Below, in pieces: positions 22,854 through 32,000 of a stretch of DNA of 32,000 nucleotides. The stretch comes from Phascolarctobacterium sp. (lineage in GTDB: Bacteria; Bacillota; Negativicutes; Acidaminococcales; Acidaminococcaceae), in assembly GCA_021201965.1 (NCBI GenBank), contig JAJQDY010000055.1:8563-40562 (forward strand). The letters are read 5' to 3'. The notes under the pieces were generated by a model that did no database searches, was not told where the DNA came from, and saw only the letters and a program-made list of their open reading frames with translations. A program made the translations under genes and the position numbers. Numbering within the stretch: position 1 is the first letter of the stretch; the number at the start of each line of letters is the position of its first letter.

Positions 22854-23261
22854 TTATTTCATTTTGTCAATGAGGTCCTGCGTAACGTCTTTTCCTCCGT
22901 GGGGAACGGCTTCCTTAATTAAAATGGCACCCAGGTCCTTTTCCTTGGCAACCTGAGCCAGGCCGGTTTCAAGGCTGACTTTCAGCTTGTTCTGGGATTC
23001 GCTCTGAATTAAATTGGCTTTGGCGCTGTACTCTTCAAAGACTTTCTTCTGTTCTTCCTCGTCTTTGCCTTCCATAGCACTCCGCATTTCTGCTTCCAGA
23101 TCCTGCAGTTTCTTCGTGACTTCCTCCCTGGTAGTTTTTACCACGGCAGCGCTTTCCTCCACTTGGCGCATATCAACTATTCCGAAATCGGCATTGCGCC
23201 CGCTGCAGCCTGAGCTCATTAATGCTATGGCAACCATTAATTCTGCGGCAATTTTTCTCAT
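22854..23261 (-). CDS. skp: Skp/OmpH-family periplasmic chaperone, possible lipoprotein
   Basis: I prefer the start MRKIAAELMVAIALMSSGCSG (GAGG 9 nt upstream, overlapping the upstream stop); the track start is 23288. It has a coiled-coil core and ends KDLGAILIKEAV..GGKDVTQDLIDKM, typical of OmpH. The Cys follows a signal-like helix. Confidence 0.75.
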   Translation of the reverse strand: MRKIAAELMVAIALMSSGCSGRNADFGIVDMRQVEESAAVVKTTREEVTKKLQDLEAEMRSAMEGKDEEEQKKVFEEYSAKANLIQSESQNKLKVSLETGLAQVAKEKDLGAILIKEAVPHGGKDVTQDLIDKMK

Positions 23262-23271
23262 TTTTAAAACC

Positions 23272-24198
23272 TCACTTATTTTCTTCATTATTTTCTTTCC
23301 GCATTATGGCGATGACATCGTCTGTTATGTCATCAGCCTTGACGTTTACTTTATATTCCTTAAAGACCACCGTACACCTGTTGTCTTTGGCAACCTTTTC
23401 CACGGCGGACGCAATGTCCACTGTCATTTTATCAAGAATCTGCCTGTTCCGCTCTTCCTGCCGTGCTATTTCCCTGTCCATGATGTTCAGGGCTTCCTTT
23501 ATGGCTTTCGGGGCATCGTTCATCATTTTATTATATTTGCCTTCCGAAACGCCGAGCTTCTCCATTATATCCTGGTTCAGCCCGTCCGCCACTTCACGCA
23601 GGTTTGCATGCGCCTCGTCTATCCTCGGCTGCATGCGCTCCGCAATAATGCCCATTTTTACGTTTTCTATTTCCTGCATCCTCTGGTCGCGCTCGCCCTT
23701 TACCGACTGCAGTTCCCTCTCCGCATTCCTTTTCTCTTCGGGCGTAAGTTTCAGGGACTGCATCTGCATGCGGATATTGAACATCCTGAGCTGGTACTCG
23801 TTTTCCAGTTCCTTTTTATGTTCCCCGACAACCTCTTCCGCATCAGCCTCAGTTTCGTGATAGTACTGCTCCAGCCTTTCGTTTTCAATAACCTGCTGTT
23901 CAGCCATGCGGGTATTGAAATCGGCCTCCAGGTAACTCCTCTCACTCATATCCCTCAGCTCATACAGCTTCATGAGGTTCCTCATCTGGGTGCGAGCCAC
24001 GTTTTCCTGATCCTGGCGTTTTTCCACCAGACTCTTATAAACAGCCTCGCCATGGACCAGACGCTTATGCTGTGGATGCCCCGCAACGACCTTCTCGAAG
24101 TCAATGACCGCTATCTTGTCACTGCGGAAATTCAGGAATAAGCAGCCAAAGACCACAAATATACCTACAATGATTTTCCAAAGCAGCGATCTGTTCAT
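23272..24198 (-). CDS. Skp/OmpH-family protein with doubled-length coiled-coil arm (308 aa)
   Basis: It has an N-terminal anchor/signal, an OmpH start KIAVIDFEKVVAGHPQ and an OmpH end KDNRCTVVFKEYKVNVKADDITDDVIAIM. These are separated by about 230 aa of charged helical sequence. Confidence 0.7.
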   Translation of the reverse strand: MNRSLLWKIIVGIFVVFGCLFLNFRSDKIAVIDFEKVVAGHPQHKRLVHGEAVYKSLVEKRQDQENVARTQMRNLMKLYELRDMSERSYLEADFNTRMAEQQVIENERLEQYYHETEADAEEVVGEHKKELENEYQLRMFNIRMQMQSLKLTPEEKRNAERELQSVKGERDQRMQEIENVKMGIIAERMQPRIDEAHANLREVADGLNQDIMEKLGVSEGKYNKMMNDAPKAIKEALNIMDREIARQEERNRQILDKMTVDIASAVEKVAKDNRCTVVFKEYKVNVKADDITDDVIAIMRKENNEENK

Positions 24199-24219
24199 AG
24201 CCTTCTCCTGCGGTACGGT

Positions 24220-24702
24220 TTATTTTTCTGTCCTGAGCGCCTTCAACACGTCTTCAGTAATGTCAACGCCGCCGAAGATTACCGTTTTCTTGTCGACAAC
24301 AACGGACAGGCCTTTCTTGTCGGCCACTTTTTTGATCTCCTCTTTCGTCTTGGCGCGGATGGGCTCAAGCAGCTCCTTCTCCTTGGCAGCTAGACGTTCC
24401 TGCAGCTCGGAGTAATGGCTGCGTTTCTGGTCTTCGTTCATGTCCTGGCTTTTTTCGTTGAACTCGTTCTGGGCGACCTCTATTTCCGCCTGCATGATCT
24501 CCCTGACGTTTTCAACCCCGGGGCTCTGCGTTATGAGTGCCTGGTAATTTATGGTACCTATGGCACTTTCCATGGCGGCTTCGCTGGAAGCACTGAAGAT
24601 TCCCTTGTCAATGGAATAAGCAAAGCAGCCGATTACAAAGATCGCCGCCACGATGAGGGAAACCATCTTGACATTTTTCGGATTGCGCAATTGCTGCATC
24701 AT
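24220..24702 (-). CDS. skp: Skp/OmpH-family periplasmic chaperone
   Basis: It has a signal/anchor, ...INYQALITQSPG..., a coiled-coil core and the end KKGLSVVVDKKTVIFGGVDITEDVLKAL. AGGAG SD. It is 160 aa. Confidence 0.8.
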   Translation of the reverse strand: MMQQLRNPKNVKMVSLIVAAIFVIGCFAYSIDKGIFSASSEAAMESAIGTINYQALITQSPGVENVREIMQAEIEVAQNEFNEKSQDMNEDQKRSHYSELQERLAAKEKELLEPIRAKTKEEIKKVADKKGLSVVVDKKTVIFGGVDITEDVLKALRTEK

Positions 24703-24791: not shown

Positions 24792-26057
24792 CTACAAATT
24801 CCCTATAAGGCGGAGGTAGAATTCGTCCCCGCCGTAAACGGCTTCGGCACTGAGAAATTCATGGATGCGGTAGCGCACGCCGTACTCGTTCCTGTTGCTG
24901 CCGGAAAAATGCTCCGTGCGCAGGCGCCATCTGGGTCCAAGGTAATATTCAAACTTCCAGTCGTTTTCGCTCTTTGGGATCCTCCTTGCATAGGTCCAGG
25001 CGCTCTTGCCCCAGTGATATGTATAGCCGAGGCCGAATATCCAGTCCATGTCATTTAAATAGACTTCCGCCTCGCCGAATACTTCATGATCGGTCAGGAG
25101 GAACCTGCCGACATGGGCCTTGCCGGACAGGTTGTTCTTATCCCTGCCCACATCGCCGTAACCTTCAAACCAGATTTTATACTCATTGGATGTGAGAAGG
25201 ATTTCAACATCCGTGTCAGGACCGGGGGTAATGCTGACCTTAGGTTTTAAGCGGTAAAGCTTACCGTCCGCCTCGTCTTCCAGCTGCGCCCTGAGGGACC
25301 CCGTGATTTCATCCCTGTTGCGTTTCACGTGTTCAACGGGAAGCCCGCGCAGCTTATCACATTCCACGCGGTATTTGTTTTTAAGTTTCATTAAAAGGAG
25401 GTTCGGAATTGCTTCTGACCTCAGTTCGTAATTTATGGTCCTTACCAGCTGCCCCACGGGATAGATGACAACCTGTACCACGGTCCTGTCGCCTTCCTGT
25501 ACAAGATCGACCGCCGCCTTGAATTCAGGGAGGGCATTTTCCACTTCATCCCTCACGATCCTTCTTAAGACGCCTACCGCCCAGTCGCTAGCATCAACCG
25601 ATGCTCCCCTTATGGTGTAGAGCAGGTCATTCTTAAGCTGCGGCATCCGCTCTTCAAGAAGCTCTGCTGCCGCAGGCTCCACGCCGGAAAACTGTATGTC
25701 AAGGTCCACGTTTTCTATGGTATTATTCCAGGGGTATATTTCAAGGGTTATATAAGTCGTCGGCCCGAGGGTCATATAGGTATTGCTTATTTCGTAGCCG
25801 GTAAGCACCCTGTCGCCGATTTCCGTAAGGAGCCTTGTATAGTCCACTTCAGAAAGGCGCACTATTTCCGTGTCCTTGTCCGCAAGGATCTGCTTGGCAA
25901 CCACCTGCATGCTGCTGCCCATTTTCCTGAGCAGCGGCCCGCTGGTGTCGCCCCTTATGTCAACGACATTCACGCTCACGCTGTCTATCGGCATAGAAAA
26001 AGCTTGCTGCAGCGGCATAAGTGCCAGTGCAGCAATGGTAAGAATCTTAAAATTCAT
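24792..26057 (-). CDS. exported protein of unknown function: three repeated alpha/beta-looking modules plus an aromatic-rich beta C-terminal domain (putative OM protein)
   Basis: Signal peptide is MNFKILTIAALALMPLQQAFS. Internal module ends recur: TYITLEIYP (about aa 109) and TVVQVVIYP (about aa 200). About 26 of the last 133 residues are W/Y/F, in an alternating pattern. SD GGAGAG lies in the 17 nt after the bamA stop. Confidence 0.6.
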   Translation of the reverse strand: MNFKILTIAALALMPLQQAFSMPIDSVSVNVVDIRGDTSGPLLRKMGSSMQVVAKQILADKDTEIVRLSEVDYTRLLTEIGDRVLTGYEISNTYMTLGPTTYITLEIYPWNNTIENVDLDIQFSGVEPAAAELLEERMPQLKNDLLYTIRGASVDASDWAVGVLRRIVRDEVENALPEFKAAVDLVQEGDRTVVQVVIYPVGQLVRTINYELRSEAIPNLLLMKLKNKYRVECDKLRGLPVEHVKRNRDEITGSLRAQLEDEADGKLYRLKPKVSITPGPDTDVEILLTSNEYKIWFEGYGDVGRDKNNLSGKAHVGRFLLTDHEVFGEAEVYLNDMDWIFGLGYTYHWGKSAWTYARRIPKSENDWKFEYYLGPRWRLRTEHFSGSNRNEYGVRYRIHEFLSAEAVYGGDEFYLRLIGNL

Positions 26058-26074: not shown

Positions 26075-28324
26075 TCAGAATTGTCCGCCAAAGCTGAAAT
26101 GGAATTTACCTCCCGCATCGCCGTAGCCGTAATCAAGTTTAATGGGACCGAGAGGGGAATTGATGCGTATGCCGAAACCGCCGCTCGTCTTTACGAGGCC
26201 TAAATCGAAATAGTCCTCATGGCGTTTATCCCATGCGTAGCCGTTATCAATAAAGAATCCGCCCTGTACCCTCTTGGCCAGCGGGAAACGGTATTCAAGC
26301 GTTGCCTTTAAGAGGCTGTTGCCACGGAACTGGTCATCCTCGTAGCCACGCAGCGTATCGCTACCGCCCATGGAGAAGCGCTGTGACAGCGGCATGTCGC
26401 CGTGGGCATAGCCTCCGACGAGGTTCCACGCCCAGATCTGGTTCCTGCCGGCACGGTAATAATATCTCCCGTCTGCTGTAAGTTTGGTAAATGTAAAGTC
26501 ACCGCCGAGACCGGCCCATTCTACGCTGTAGCCTATGCGTTTGCCGGCATGCGGATCGTACTGGTTGTCGCGGGAATCGTATACGCGGCCGATCGTTACG
26601 CTCCTGGTGCGGCCGAAGTTCTCCTTGCGGCGTTCCCTGTAGTCCGTGGGATAGTAATCCTTCCAGTGTTTGCTGTTATTAAACTGCGGTTCGTAGTACT
26701 GGTTGGTATCGCCATTATAGCCGTCGGCCTGGCCGTCATAAATATCATCACGGTTCTTCAACGTGAGATAGTTGCTGATGAACTCATTATGCGTCTTCCA
26801 GCTCATGGTAATTTCCTGGCCCCTGCGCTTTTTATCATATCTTGCGATTTCGTGGCCGCCGATATCGTAATCCGCATATTCCGCAGTGATATCATATAGG
26901 TTAATGCTTGCCTGGGTTTCATGCTTATCTATCCAGGGTTTTACATATGTCAAATCGTAGTTCTTATCATCCTCGCCGCCAAACTCCCAGCGGAGCATAA
27001 CGCTGTCACCAGTGCCGCGGAAGTTCTTGTCGCCGATGGAGATCATGCCGATGAACCCGTCGGCGTCACTGTATCCTGCGCCTACGCCGAAGGTGCCGGT
27101 ATTCATTTCAACTACGGATATTTCAACCTCGACGCCGTTTTCCTCGCGTCCAGGATTTAATCTTACGTTAACGTCCTCGAAGAAGCCGAGGTTATAGATA
27201 CGCTGCATGCTGCGGCGGGCAAGTTTCGCATTGAAAGGTTCGCCTTTTTTCAGCCGCATTTCACGGGTAATTACGTAATCCTTACATTTTTTGTTGCCCT
27301 TAACCTTGAAATCCTCGACTATGCTTTCGTTTGCGGTTATGCTCAATGTCCCGTCCTGGGCCATGTGCACGTCGCTTACGCGGGCCAAAATATACCCGTC
27401 GGCACGGTACAGTTCCTCAAGTTTCTGGACCCTGGTATTAATATCCTTTAAATTGGCAGTATGGCCTGCAGGCATGTCAAACAGCCTATCTATCTTATCC
27501 TGTGCGATGACCGTATTGCCTTTTACTTCCAGTCTCTCATAAATGGGGTTTTCCATGACATGGTAGTTAACCTCGACGCCTTCGGGGACAAGGCGGAACT
27601 CCGGACGCATATCATAGAACCAGCCCATTTCATAAATGGCGCTCAAATCCTCACTGAGACCCATTTCCGTAAATTCCATGCCGGGCTTGGTTTTAAGGAC
27701 ACTCCTTATTTCGTTGTCCGTTACGACTGTATTGCCGCTGAAGATCTGCAGCGTTATGGTCCTCCCTATATAGGGCTGCAGGTTCAGTTCCAGCGGAATT
27801 TCCCTGGTGAGCATCTCTTCCTCTTCCTTAAGGAAGGGATCTTCAACCTGTTCCGGTTTTGCAATCACGTCACCTTCTGAACTTAAGGAAATACTTTCTT
27901 CACTTTTAGGCGGCTCTCCGGCATCCACCGGGATTACTTCCCCGCTCCCGCCGGTGTTGGGCAGCCTTATTTCCCCAATCACAGGGGCACTGTCAGCTTC
28001 AGGCTGCTGGGCCGAAGCATCAATTGCCGGTACCCCGCCCATAGTTTCATAGTAGTTCGGGATTAGCGTACCGTTTTTAGCGGCCTTTTTCGCCTTCTTC
28101 TGAAACTCCTTGGCCTCTTTCTTGGCTTTCTTCTGGGCCGCTTTCTCGGCCCTAAGCTCGTCATTCTGGGTCCTTACGTAAGGATTCCTTCCACCTGCAC
28201 CGATGGAAATCGTATCGGATGCAGACCGGTCCGAGCCGAAAGCGTCTTTCGCATAGGCTGGCACCTGCAGCATGGCAATCGCCAGTGCTACTGATATGAG
28301 TAGCAACAGCTTTTTCTTATTCAA
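26075..28324 (-). CDS. bamA: outer membrane protein assembly factor BamA (Omp85) with K/A-rich N-terminal extension
   Basis: It has a signal peptide, POTRA-like modules (about aa 180-420), and a barrel with ...GTFGVGAGYS..., ...LRGY... and a terminal ...KFHFSFGGQF. It is 749 aa. Confidence 0.9.
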   Translation of the reverse strand: MNKKKLLLLISVALAIAMLQVPAYAKDAFGSDRSASDTISIGAGGRNPYVRTQNDELRAEKAAQKKAKKEAKEFQKKAKKAAKNGTLIPNYYETMGGVPAIDASAQQPEADSAPVIGEIRLPNTGGSGEVIPVDAGEPPKSEESISLSSEGDVIAKPEQVEDPFLKEEEEMLTREIPLELNLQPYIGRTITLQIFSGNTVVTDNEIRSVLKTKPGMEFTEMGLSEDLSAIYEMGWFYDMRPEFRLVPEGVEVNYHVMENPIYERLEVKGNTVIAQDKIDRLFDMPAGHTANLKDINTRVQKLEELYRADGYILARVSDVHMAQDGTLSITANESIVEDFKVKGNKKCKDYVITREMRLKKGEPFNAKLARRSMQRIYNLGFFEDVNVRLNPGREENGVEVEISVVEMNTGTFGVGAGYSDADGFIGMISIGDKNFRGTGDSVMLRWEFGGEDDKNYDLTYVKPWIDKHETQASINLYDITAEYADYDIGGHEIARYDKKRRGQEITMSWKTHNEFISNYLTLKNRDDIYDGQADGYNGDTNQYYEPQFNNSKHWKDYYPTDYRERRKENFGRTRSVTIGRVYDSRDNQYDPHAGKRIGYSVEWAGLGGDFTFTKLTADGRYYYRAGRNQIWAWNLVGGYAHGDMPLSQRFSMGGSDTLRGYEDDQFRGNSLLKATLEYRFPLAKRVQGGFFIDNGYAWDKRHEDYFDLGLVKTSGGFGIRINSPLGPIKLDYGYGDAGGKFHFSFGGQF

Positions 28325-28338
28325 ATCCCAGGTCCCCC

Positions 28339-28776
28339 TTATTTACTGAGCTCCGTCTTGGCAGACCGTACCAGCCGGCGCATGTCGGCATTTGATATCA
28401 CTGGTCTTGCGACGGAGCGCTCGGCAGGCACTTCTCCGGAATAAACTTCTTTCCCGCTTGCTTCCTTTGCGCGGGCTTGAGCCTTCACTACGCTCTGGGT
28501 CACATCTGCCTGCATGGCATGCTGTGCCGAAACGCCGTGGTAATACCAGCCGCCGAACCCTGCCAGGACTAAAAGTATGGCCGTGCAGACCGCCAGCATG
28601 TGTCTGTTCCAATTCCATGGGACGTCACTTTTACGGCGCAGGTTTTTCAGCTCTGCTTCAGCAAGCATTAAATCAAGCTCGCCGCGCATGCCGTTATTAT
28701 CAAGAAAATTCTGTTCCGCATTTTCAAGACTGCTTTTTACGGTACGGATTCTCTGGGATACCTGTTTCTGTTCCAT
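28339..28776 (-). CDS. single-pass membrane protein, unknown function (anti-sigma-factor-like topology)
   Basis: It has about 58 aa of cytoplasmic helical N-terminus, the TM segment MLAVCTAILLVLAGFGGWYY, and about 65 aa outside. It lies 14 nt upstream of bamA and is the next gene after the sigma factor. No zinc-finger or other recognisable motif. Confidence 0.5.
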   Translation of the reverse strand: MEQKQVSQRIRTVKSSLENAEQNFLDNNGMRGELDLMLAEAELKNLRRKSDVPWNWNRHMLAVCTAILLVLAGFGGWYYHGVSAQHAMQADVTQSVVKAQARAKEASGKEVYSGEVPAERSVARPVISNADMRRLVRSAKTELSK

Positions 28777-28912
28777 AACGTGACCTACTTCCTGAAAAAT
28801 AGATGTAAATACATAATCCTTTTTTAAGATTTATTGACTTTCCGTTTTTTGGAGATTTTCCCCACATTACGCAGCTTATCTTGCGTTTACTTTTAAAATC
28901 ACCATTATATGA

Positions 28913-29548
28913 CTACTCTTTGTTAAGTTCGTGAATGAATTTTGAAAGCATGCTGCGTACCCTGCGCACTCCCTGCTTCTGCAAACGGTACACATGCCCG
29001 GGGCTTATATCAATGGCATCGGCTAAGGTTTTTGCCGTCTTGTCTTCAAGGTAAATGCCGGTTAAAACCATCTGTTCCTTCTGCGGCAGCCTTTCAATGG
29101 CCAGTGCCACTTTTTCCTGCAGCATCTGCTGTTCCACTATTTCAAGTGGCGATGTATCGGCAGATACAAGCGTATCACCGAGAATTACTCCTGATGTCGT
29201 TTCCCCTTCGAGGTAGAGCCGCCCCTTCCAAGAAATCTTTTTCAGGAAATCCATCATGCATCCCTTAATGCGGTATGAAGCAAAAATACTGAAGGCCACG
29301 CCGCGCGTATTGTCGTAATTTCCCGCAGCTTCAAGGAGTCCTACCATTCCTTCCTGGATAAGCTCCATGGTTTCCGCTTCAGGCAACGCGAAAGAAATGG
29401 CAATTTTAAATACTAGGGGCTGGTAGGAAGTCATGAGTTTCCTGTGCGCCTCGGTATCCCCTGCCCTCGTCTTCTCCCACAGGGAGTATTCTTCATCAGG
29501 CTGCAAAAGTTTTGTCTTACGCAGTTCTTCTAAGTATTTCTGCAGCAT
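28913..29548 (-). CDS. sigma-70 family RNA polymerase sigma factor (group 3, FliA/SigB-like architecture)
   Basis: Region 2 reads LVFKIAISFA...ELIQEGMVGLLEAAGNYD...FSIFASYRIKGCMMDFLKK. Region 4 HTH reads KTLADAIDISPGHVYRLQKQGVRRVRSML. It is 211 aa and starts 14 nt after the tamB stop. Confidence 0.85.
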   Translation of the reverse strand: MLQKYLEELRKTKLLQPDEEYSLWEKTRAGDTEAHRKLMTSYQPLVFKIAISFALPEAETMELIQEGMVGLLEAAGNYDNTRGVAFSIFASYRIKGCMMDFLKKISWKGRLYLEGETTSGVILGDTLVSADTSPLEIVEQQMLQEKVALAIERLPQKEQMVLTGIYLEDKTAKTLADAIDISPGHVYRLQKQGVRRVRSMLSKFIHELNKE

Positions 29549-29562
29549 TTTACACCTCCATG

Positions 29563-32000
29563 TCAGAATCTGATCCTATATTCGAGCTCTACCCAGTCAT
29601 CCGGATCCGTCAAACCATAGGTTCGGGAATATGCAAGATTTATATGCCTACTAATATCGTACTGTCCAAAGATACTTCTGTCAATACCATTGAAACTTGT
29701 CGTGTAGCCGATCATAAGATGCGACGTAAAGTATTTGCTTATCAGCATGTTGTAATGGTTCTTATCATCTGTGCTAAGTTCACTGCTGCTTGCCTGCTTC
29801 ATGGTTTCGAAACCGTCACCGCTCCTTATCTGTCCAGTGTAGATGCGGAACTGGTCAATACCCCGCGACTGCTTCAGCATCATCTCAACGTCGCCTAGGA
29901 CCGCCATCTGCAGGCCCACCGCCATGAGGTTTTGCATATCTTCACCGGTTATTTCATCCCCTCCGACTGCATCGGCACGCTGCAGTGTCAGCATACAGAT
30001 AATGGTATTCTGCTCGAGTGGCGGATTACTTGTAAGCTTCATGTTTATGTCTTCAATGGGCCCTTTAATGGTCACGTAAATATAGTACCTGCTGAAGCGG
30101 GCTTCGCTTTCAATATTTACCGTCGGGAAGAAAGTCCTCTTGGTCGGCCAGGAAAGTGATGCCTCTTTCAGCTTAAAGGGCGTGCGCAAATATGTAACCG
30201 TGCCGTGGTCCACGCTCAAATCGCCGCTGATATCCGGGAAAAGGCTGCTGCCTTCTATATGCATACTTTCTACTACCAACAGGTCGTAGAAGAATTTATT
30301 GAATAAATGAATCTTAGGACCGAGCTCTATATTAAGATCCAATCCGATATTGGTTCCGCCGTCCCCCATATCAGGAACCGTAGGAACATTAAAGAGTGCG
30401 TCTTCCACCCTTACATTGCCGCTTATCTTCGGCCGGTAGCCACTTTCCGCTTCCGTAGTTTCCGTGGCACGCTTCCTGTAACCTTCAGTCGTTATGGTAA
30501 GTTTGCTGTTCAGCCTGCAGGTCAGAATGTCTGATACGAGTTCCGCATCATTTGCCACGATATGCAGCATGTAGCTTTGGTCCTCGCTGCTGCGCAGGCC
30601 GTAGGTACCATTAAAGGCAATAGTGCCCTTGCCGAGCTGCGTGGAAAGATCATCCAGACGCACCTGGTCACCGTCAAAGACAAGCTCCGTATTGATTTTA
30701 TCTACAACTGTATCAGCGTCCTTTATCTTTATGCAGCCTTCTCTTATGGTAACGGAACCGAAAGTAAAGGGTTCTTCCAAAGTCCCCGCAAGGACTATGT
30801 TGCCGGCCGTTTCGCCAATTGCCCATTCAACCTGTTTGAAAAGGGCGGGCAGTATACCGAGCTGGGCCTCACTCATGTCGACATTAATCCTCATCTGGGC
30901 ATCCGGCTTGCGGCGCTCTTCTTTGGCGCACACAAGATCAACCTGGAGGAAGCCCCTGGCCTTGACGCTATAGATATCCTTTACAATATATGCCTCGGTT
31001 AAGGTAACCAGGTCATCGGCAAGTGTGAATTTCGTGGAAAGGGCATCAATCGGTGCCCCTGCAAAAGAGCCGTTAACTATTTCGGCATCTGCGCTGCCAG
31101 CCGGGTTATCGAAAGGTCACTGCACCTTGACCGCAATATTCATTTCACCTTTTATCTCAGGCGGATCCTTTACAAAGGCCATGGTAAGCATAGGATCTGC
31201 CTTCACCGCATTAAGCCCCACATCAATAGTCCTGCCGTCAAAATCGATCTGCCCGTCTATTATGATGCTGCCTTTGTCCGTTACGCCCTTTTTCTTCAGC
31301 AGATGGAAATTGTCAAAATAGAGCACGTCCTTTACCACATTGGCGTCAAAGAGCATATCGTTATAATGCAGTCTGTGGATGCGCACGTCATCTGCGGACA
31401 GCCGTAAAACCCAGCCGCTGCCGCTCCTGTGCGAATATGGCTGCTTAAATGAAGCCACGACCCTGTTGGTTGCGCCGCCATCAGCTTCCGCATGTCATGA
31501 TATATTCGTCAGCGACTCGCCATTAGCGATTATTTTATCGCTGCTGACATCGCCGGTAAAGACCGGCCTGTTAAGCGTTACCTTTAAAGTTCCCATGGCA
31601 TTCACAAAGCCGTCTATGTCATAATTCTTGTCCGATACGGGGAGCCTGTCGAGATCAAGATCCTTGGCATCCAGTTCAAAATCAATGCTGTTGTCGTAGA
31701 TGGACATGGTACCGTTCAGCTCAGCCTGGGTGGCCAGCGCGGCAATCTTGACATTCTTTATTTCCAAGTGCGACGGATCAATGTCATAGCTTCCCTTCAC
31801 CTTATCTATGAGGTAACCTTCTATACTACCCTTGGTGAGGCATAAATCACCCTTGGCACTGAAGCTGTTCATTGTTCCCCACACATGCATGTCGCTGTCA
31901 ATATCGCCGGTAAGGTCAAGATCCTGCCCGGCCGTCTTAAGCAGCGGTTCGATGCGTACGTGGTCTGATTTTATATCCAGGTCGAACACGGGATTATCCG
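29563..32000 (-). pseudogene. tamB: tamB (translocation and assembly module subunit, DUF490 C-terminus); 5' end outside window; frame interrupted by two in-frame TGA codons
   Basis: Track ORFs 31495..31989, 31117..31458 and 29563..30933 share one frame. Hand translation of the gaps shows no other stop. The TGAs are at 31495-31497 and 31117-31119. It has repetitive beta-rich sequence with G-x-h-x-x-P and ISG motifs, and ends ...DDWVELEYRIRF. Confidence 0.8.

Follow-up and report, generated by a model that had tools for sequence, protein, structure and literature searches.

In Escherichia coli, the alternative sigma factor RpoE is held by RseA, a one-pass inner-membrane protein with its N-terminus in the cytoplasm (N-in), and the targets of RpoE include bamA and skp. 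A second arrangement is the cell-surface signalling system FecA-FecR-FecI, in which an outer-membrane (OM) barrel and a one-pass regulator of the inner membrane accompany a sigma factor, and RsiG is an example of an anti-sigma factor built as a helical hairpin. To our knowledge, diderm Firmicutes are without RpoE-RseA, the Lol system and the BamB-E lipoproteins. Here, a 32,000-nucleotide (nt) stretch from the gut Firmicute Phascolarctobacterium sp. (Negativicutes; GenBank assembly GCA_021201965.1, contig JAJQDY010000055.1, positions 8,563 to 40,562 of the forward strand), referred to as the window, was analysed for a sigma factor gene and a gene for a one-pass membrane protein that lie between tamB and bamA.

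The closest described locus is that of Acetonema longum. There, the gene upstream of bamA was named sonB (F7NM24) in 2026 (Nat Commun; PMC13018214) and the gene downstream sonA (F7NM22), the product of which is described as a 10-stranded barrel with three POTRA domains (PMC13018214). A shared promoter was predicted for sonB-bamA-sonA-skp1, and these genes were co-expressed and induced in germination (PMC13018214). SonB was called a putative OM lipoprotein, A. longum being noted as lacking Lol, and co-immunoprecipitation of BamA yielded no partners (PMC13018214). The cluster is missing in Veillonella parvula and Acidaminococcus fermentans, and the presence of SonA and SonB does not track the ability to sporulate (PMC13018214). 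The accession order in A. longum is MlaD F7NM28, TolC F7NM27, SonB F7NM24, BamA F7NM23 and SonA F7NM22 (PMC13018214); the two numbers between TolC and SonB presumably belong to TamB and the sigma factor, and the word 'sigma' occurs nowhere in the text of that paper. In V. parvula, TamB (Vpar_0526) and BamA (Vpar_0527) are encoded by adjacent genes (PMC5491611). Literature searches found no paper describing the sigma factor between tamB and bamA.

A previous sequence-only reading of the window had pointed to the two genes as a candidate regulatory circuit for the OM. We propose, at what we consider about an even chance, that a dedicated sigma/anti-sigma-like switch controls the sonB-bamA-sonA-skp operon. 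Because retention and loss of sigma, SonB and SonA coincide across the Negativicutes, a switch on the bamA operon is probably what they form.

Layout and co-inheritance of sigma, SonB and SonA

The genes of the sigma/SonB region all lie on the minus strand, in the following order:

29563..30933, minus strand: 3' part of tamB (Pfam TamB, 88.9 bits); the same frame runs on to the window end at 32000
28913..29548, minus strand: sigma-70-family factor of 211 amino acids (aa) (Pfam Sigma70_r2 and Sigma70_r4)
28777..28912, minus strand: sigma-sonB spacer of 136 nt, with the candidate promoter of the sonB-bamA operon inside
28339..28776, minus strand: SonB-family one-pass membrane protein, 145 aa (AlphaFold2 model and family alignment)
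26075..28324, minus strand: bamA, 749 aa, TTG start at 28324 (Pfam Omp85 154 bits, POTRA 108 bits)
24792..26057, minus strand: SonA-family protein, 421 aa, directly downstream of bamA; third co-inherited member
22854..24702, minus strand: three Skp/OmpH paralogues (Pfam OmpH), downstream part of the presumed operon

A check of the open reading frames (ORFs) on the minus strand returned exactly the coordinates, the sizes, the 136-nt spacer and both 14-nt gaps given by the sequence-only reading, one gap between the end of the tamB frame and the sigma start and the other between the sonB end and the bamA start.

Loci of 25 relatives across the class were compared using tblastn. The order tamB-sigma-SonB-bamA was kept in these loci, save for missing matches in three (bamA in two short loci, SonB in one diverged locus), and all three have an ORF at the SonB position. 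SonA follows bamA in 14 of the 14 loci that reach that far (L013-L026). The 145-aa protein is SonB by position, distribution and published description, and not by sequence alignment to F7NM24: it has one transmembrane (TM) helix, lies directly upstream of bamA, is syntenic with sonA and skp, and is absent where SonA is absent.

For the distribution of the pair, 301 Negativicutes genomes were searched with the sigma sequence (E <= 1e-30) and a SonB profile (E <= 1e-5). Sigma was detected in 237 genomes (about 79%) and SonB in 238. Their tallies by family are identical save for one genome, there is one copy of each, and the two genes are adjacent in every genome whose listed coordinates were compared. 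The pair between tamB and bamA is thus strictly co-conserved across Negativicutes, which had been named beforehand as a check of the circuit; the idea that the circuit is particular to this lineage does not hold, the pair being present in about 79% of the genomes. A profile search gave 767 representative clusters of similar length, which carry no taxonomy; Negativicutes is the class that was surveyed by genome.

The losses follow the same pattern. In five sigma-less genomes tamB directly adjoins bamA (gaps of 122-169 nt, or a 13-nt overlap), and sigma and sonB were therefore lost together. Eight sigma-less genomes, with completeness values of 97-100%, were tested for SonA and none of them has it; two genomes that do carry sigma, from a family to which two of the losers belong, have SonA as well. 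Loss of the trio is seen in no fewer than three separate places: in a group of Acidaminococcaceae genera, in family f9 and in genus g48, which belongs to family f25. These losses agree with the published ones, and the genus names of the losers are those given in PMC13018214. From this joint pattern of presence and loss, it follows that sigma, SonB and SonA behave as one evolutionary unit around bamA.

The sigma factor and the membrane protein SonB

The sigma protein belongs to the sigma-70 family, as regions 2 and 4 both score above the Pfam cut-offs (PF04542, Sigma70_r2, 49 bits with a cut-off of 24; PF04545, Sigma70_r4, 35.7 with a cut-off of 24.1) and both are present in the AlphaFold2 model. 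The match to region 1.2 was below the Pfam threshold, and Sigma70_r3 was not found with Pfam. Residues 1-107 form sigma2, residues 108-133 a short linker and residues 134-210 sigma4, which is strongly basic and nearly invariant in the sigma factors that accompany SonB. The top specific NCBIfam model was FliA_WhiG (TIGR02479) with 94.8 bits, below its cut-off of 189.6, followed by RpoS, RpoH, SigB/F/G and SigK; no equivalog cut-off was reached. The generic model TIGR02937 was passed with 91.9 bits, the FliA, RpoS, RpoH and SigF models scoring similarly or higher, and specific models for extracytoplasmic function (ECF) sigma factors gave 48-50 bits.

Alignments to PDB sequences placed residues 27-111 on FliA residues 18-103 and residues 127-203 on Aquifex FliA residues 161-237; sigma3 of FliA (residues 104-160) corresponds to about 15 residues here. 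The AlphaFold2 model, based on 33 homologues, reached a predicted local distance difference test (pLDDT) score of 84.8 and consists of sigma2, a 26-residue linker of low confidence and sigma4. Its best fold matches are sigma factors of groups 1-3 (sigma-32, SigB, sigma-S, SigD and SigH). PDB entry 6pfv, which we take to be linked to RsiG, is among both the sequence and the fold matches. With 211 aa and only sigma2 and sigma4, the protein has the two-domain architecture of ECF factors (about 200 aa). It is therefore group-3-like (FliA-like) by sequence and ECF-like by architecture. It had earlier been assigned to group 3; a sigma factor of 211 aa is indeed encoded, and it is not a typical group-3 factor because the sigma3 domain is absent, the FliA/WhiG cut-off also being missed.

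Only three sigma-70-family genes were detected in the genome: an RpoD-like gene (560-aa frame), a SigH orthologue and the sigma gene between tamB and bamA. The latter carries the automatic JGI label 'sporulation-specific sigma factor'. Identity with SigH was ruled out, because the separate SigH orthologue sits elsewhere in the genome in its classical cysS...yacO-yacP context (contig C83:3388-4119, minus strand, preceded by cysS, a gene for an rRNA methyltransferase and one resembling yacP); the tamB-bamA sigma scores 54 bits with the SigH model NF006147, which has a cut-off of 212. Identity with flagellar FliA was rejected because no FHIPEP flagellar export gene was found in the genome.

The AlphaFold2 model of SonB (pLDDT 73.5) contains the following parts:

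aa 2-27 and 30-49: helical hairpin of two helices
aa 54-101: long helix with the hydrophobic segment (TM from about residue 60)
aa ~102-128: disordered stretch or linker
aa 129-144: C-terminal amphipathic helix

Topology statistics were calculated on 76 distinct family members. The hydrophobic segment starts at a median of residue 62. No N-terminal signal peptide was seen in the 76 sequences, the first 30 residues of which are not hydrophobic. The mean number of lysines and arginines is 5.0 in the 15 residues before the hydrophobic segment and 1.9 after it. Model and charge bias agree with the topology that the sequence-only reading had described (a helical N-terminus, one TM helix and a short external domain). 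Lipobox-like words occur in 31 of the 76 sequences, always inside the hydrophobic segment, and seven sequences have no cysteine at all; SonB thus lacks what defines a lipoprotein, namely a signal peptide that ends in a lipobox with an invariant cysteine.

Ten of the eleven invariant columns in family alignment A1 fall within residues 17-41, and the eleventh is in the C-terminal helix. The hairpin consensus over residues 17-41 reads L..AE..F, a turn, and then RGELDLMLAEAE. The linker varies in length and is rich in proline, alanine and glutamine; the SonB of the window is the shortest family member observed, with a truncated linker. Taken together, these features favour SonB being a protein that crosses the inner membrane once, N-in, with the strongest constraint on a cytoplasmic, acidic hairpin; the sigma4 domain opposite this hairpin is the strongly basic one.

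No family match was found in Pfam, NCBIfam or PDB for the protein of the window and 31 aligned homologues, and none of the known anti-sigma domains (zf-HC2/RsiW, RseA, RskA, FecR, FlgM) was detected in SonB by sequence or fold. The NCBIfam model 'antisigma' gave 18 bits (cut-off 100), the best PDB sequence match was to DotF and was not significant (E 0.039), and Foldseek with the SonB model returned nothing beyond generic helical hairpins, every one of them at E > 1. An anti-sigma-like topology without a known anti-sigma motif had been described before, and the Pfam, NCBIfam, PDB, fold and topology results bear this out. What SonB shares with the anti-sigma class is a position next to a sigma gene, co-inheritance with it, and the N-in one-pass topology.

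The sigma-sonB spacer and the state of the locus in this lineage

A gap between sigma and sonB was present in 27 of 27 diverse loci, with a length of roughly 60-370 nt and mostly of 100-200 nt. No sigma-70 consensus site was found in the spacer using a promoter scan, in agreement with the sequence-only reading, which had considered a non-housekeeping promoter there; a conserved, non-canonical -10-like element, GAYTATA, was found that fits this idea. In the window, the candidate promoter consists of:

28812..28818, minus strand: -10-like element GATTATG (family consensus GAYTATA); the sonB ATG follows 42 nt downstream
28832..28838, minus strand: -35-like heptamer GTCAATA, 13 nt from the -10-like element

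Of 26 loci compared at genus level, 16 have an exact GAYTATA within 15-75 nt upstream of sonB, with the conserved position at 25-65 nt, where 0.024 would be expected per locus (about 0.6 in total). The word recurs in 12 of 20 additional loci from across the class, and Selenomonadaceae-like loci have near variants such as GATTTTAT. The distance between the -35-like and the -10-like word is 13 nt in the window, 15 nt in the relative used for comparison (L115, GCA_965307805.1, with a sigma 85% identical to that of the window) and 15-16 nt in other Acidaminococcales, in which the upstream word is GTGAAAA. In Sporomusales-like families, CCAGAATCTGGCCTCTTCCC is found upstream of GAYTATA in place of GTGAAAA.

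The -35-like word is 18-19 nt from any TATA hexamer. In our reading, this spacing and an invariant GA that would be left without a role fit sigma-A poorly. A TGAAA(A/C)-N16 arrangement with a short -10 would resemble ECF-type promoters, for example those of Bacillus subtilis sigma-W. Among the loci without sigma that were examined, those with an intergenic gap carry a plain or near-plain TATAAT box ahead of bamA, which fits recognition of GAYTATA by the neighbouring sigma factor, without proving it.

Genomes were also scanned for further copies of the motif. The long Sporomusales-type motif gave one match in each of 14 positive genomes, before sonB wherever positions were compared. Strict GTGAAAA-N15/16-GAYTATA gave 13 matches in 41 genomes, six of them at sonB, versus four control matches. 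When the genome of the window was scanned loosely, only scattered matches came up, which were judged to be noise. The longer lineage motifs were read as unique to the sonB site in the genomes that carry them, and a larger regulon was set aside, as no second target site came from the strict, Sporomusales-type or loose scans.

Two groups of relatives differ in this region. The CCAGAATCTGGCCTCTTCCC block lies about 20-35 nt upstream of GAYTATA in L095, L096, L098, L099, L101, L108 and L109, and also in L020, and is absent from the window. It is strongly conserved and includes the palindrome CCAGA-A-TCTGG, which covers the -35 region upstream of sonB and could be the binding site of a dimeric regulator. 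In Succiniclasticum-like loci (L026, L071-L080, L083) the sonB promoter is a near-perfect sigma-A site, TTGCCA-17-TATAAT, and region 4.2 of the sigma factor reads RLEKQ or RLEKK in place of RLQKQ; the two changes could reflect co-variation or a promoter take-over.

A structured RNA in the spacer was rejected, no Rfam match having been found, and no hairpin in the spacer was conserved across genera. A terminator after the sigma gene was likewise rejected: the first 68 nt past the stop were folded in 27 loci and gave a mean z of -0.54, with only four loci below -2.

In the window, the tamB frame (29563-32000) contains two in-frame stops, and the tamB remnant is therefore a pseudogene. Its last 870 codons are colinear in one frame with TamB of L115, in which the gene is intact (1429 aa). 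The identity to L115 is 70% for tamB and about 85% for sigma, SonB and SonA, which suggests relaxed constraint on tamB, as in a pseudogene. The frame 14 nt before sigma had been named tamB, and this identification stands; the gene is broken here and intact in L115. Sigma, SonB and SonA have ratios of nonsynonymous to synonymous substitution rates (dN/dS) of 0.13, 0.21 and 0.11 in comparison with L115, and are maintained under purifying selection in this lineage.

Compared with L115, the sonB promoter of the window has two 1-nt deletions (28819-28831) between the -35-like and -10-like words, and its -10-like word is GATTATG, versus GATTATA in L115. The promoter may have been weakened in this lineage, which has also lost tamB. 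The promoter scan found one further site nearby:

29656..29684, minus strand: sigma-70-like site TTGACA-17-TACGAT, inside the 3' end of tamB and 136 nt upstream of the start of sigma

This site is common to five Acidaminococcaceae loci, at 136-157 nt before sigma. As a lead, it may be an internal promoter that keeps the sigma gene expressed; its conservation may also be protein-driven, because it lies inside conserved coding sequence.

Among the neighbouring genes, bamA is presumed to be the main target of the spacer promoter. Its TTG start is preceded by a GGGGGA ribosome site, and its score with the NCBIfam model OM_YaeT (276 bits) is slightly below the cut-off of 297.15. One Skp/OmpH copy (160 aa, 59.2 bits) is over the Pfam cut-off and the other two are under it. 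The SonA-family protein (24792-26057) has no match in Pfam or NCBIfam, despite the published POTRA domains and barrel; the curated models miss this family. The source assembly is small (1.38 Mb, 96% complete).

A candidate switch on the bamA operon and known systems

The proposed switch builds on the gene order, the co-inheritance, the topology and domain make-up of the two proteins, the conserved promoter element and the purifying selection; from these we infer sigma-SonB binding, a release signal and promoter specificity. The sigma gene would be transcribed together with tamB or from within the tamB end. SonB, located in the inner membrane, would keep sigma inactive with its conserved acidic cytoplasmic hairpin, while its disordered periplasmic linker would carry the conserved C-terminal helix to a partner in the envelope. 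This partner would most likely be the OM barrel SonA or the BamA machinery, SonA standing out as candidate since its losses coincide with those of the sigma/SonB pair. A change in the envelope contact would release sigma, which would then drive the unusual promoter in the spacer. As this promoter would head the sonB-bamA-sonA-skp operon, SonB would be re-made and a negative feedback loop would close.

Several points weigh against this switch. SonB matches no anti-sigma family by sequence or by fold, and classical anti-sigma domains are longer than its hairpin. The motif scans gave no second target site, and hence no evidence for a regulon. The -35 region differs between lineages, several genera are without the exact -10 word, and the spacer might still hold a promoter read by sigma-A and accompanied by a regulator site. 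Unlike in typical autoregulated ECF operons, the sigma gene is not preceded by the motif. Finally, the published view of SonB is that of an OM lipoprotein (PMC13018214).

An alternative which we regard as unlikely starts from the proposal made there (PMC13018214) that SonB serves the BamA/SonA machinery in a structural or assembly role; sigma would be regulated otherwise, and the adjacency of the two genes would reflect a shared operon history only. It would account for the co-expression of SonB with BamA and SonA (PMC13018214), for the loss of SonB together with SonA, and for the lack of resemblance to any anti-sigma domain. However, conservation in SonB is highest in the hairpin predicted to be cytoplasmic and not in the periplasmic part, the lipobox-like motif is limited to 31 of 76 sequences and lies inside the hydrophobic segment, and seven sequences have no cysteine. 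Furthermore, the published co-immunoprecipitation gave no BamA partners and A. longum is without Lol (PMC13018214), and sigma has the same presence/absence pattern as SonB.

The two remaining alternatives concern the sign of the regulation and the promoter. The sequence does not separate activation from inhibition, and SonB might be a FecR-type positive regulator that activates sigma on a signal from its OM partner SonA; an OM barrel, a one-pass inner-membrane protein and a sigma factor that are co-inherited mirror the FecA-FecR-FecI layout. Since neither a FecR domain nor a TonB-dependent transducer is present, we find this quite improbable, and SonB is likelier to be an anti-sigma factor than a FecR-like activator. 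It also seems improbable, if a little less so, that sigma-A reads the spacer promoter in the ordinary way, a repressor site specific to the lineage perhaps being present, and that sigma controls unrelated genes elsewhere (e.g. stress or developmental genes). In many copies, the -10-like element includes TATAAT or TATATA, the Succiniclasticum-like site is TTGCCA-17-TATAAT, the Sporomusales-like palindrome CCAGAATCTGG over the -35 region resembles a regulator site, and the JGI label points to sporulation. This label is automatic, however, and the true SigH is encoded elsewhere; SonA and SonB are present independently of sporulation ability (PMC13018214), and the genome with this sigma factor is non-flagellate. 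An invariant GA 5' of TATA is atypical of sigma-A promoters, as is a distance of 18-19 nt to the -35-like word, and plain or near-plain TATAAT boxes take the place of this element in the loci without sigma that were examined.

More tentatively, and with doubt prevailing, sigma, SonB and SonA could form a trans-envelope triad in most diderm Firmicutes, in which SonA reports the state of OM assembly via the SonB tail to sigma, and which evolved independently of RpoE-RseA with a non-ECF sigma factor and a new type of anti-sigma factor. With the sigma gene on the mla-tolC-tamB lipid-transport transcript and the bamA operon as its target, such a triad would couple lipid supply to protein insertion. 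A dedicated sigma factor in the core OM cluster, co-inherited with SonA and SonB, offers a concrete and testable regulator for bamA expression, and the results suggest that the published OM-lipoprotein view of SonB needs another look. V. parvula, a genetically tractable model, is naturally without sigma, SonB and SonA and would be a clean heterologous host; the circuit may have been overlooked so far because this model lacks all three genes.

Among known systems, FliA/WhiG factors give the best sequence matches for sigma2 and sigma4, but the sigma factor described here is below the FliA_WhiG cut-off (94.8 versus 189.6 bits), has no sigma3 and is encoded in a genome without the flagellar export gene. 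SonB differs from FlgM and RsiG in being membrane-bound, and does not match the chains of either. With FecA-FecR-FecI the locus shares a three-part, co-inherited layout, and the resemblance is in layout only: SonA is an Omp85-like barrel with POTRA domains (PMC13018214) and not a TonB-dependent transducer, and there is no FecR domain. The likeness to RpoE-RseA lies in a sigma factor with a one-pass inner-membrane partner that has a cytoplasmic N-terminus and a periplasmic C-terminus. In contrast to that system, sigma is FliA-like and not an RpoE-type ECF factor, SonB is without RseA domains, and the promoter is between the genes of sigma and its partner and not upstream of sigma. The locus is most like that of A. 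longum, with a one-pass protein encoded directly upstream of bamA, a 420-aa barrel directly downstream, and synteny across Negativicutes; whereas an OM lipoprotein and no sigma factor were described there (PMC13018214), the present analysis favours an inner-membrane N-in protein tied to a sigma factor.

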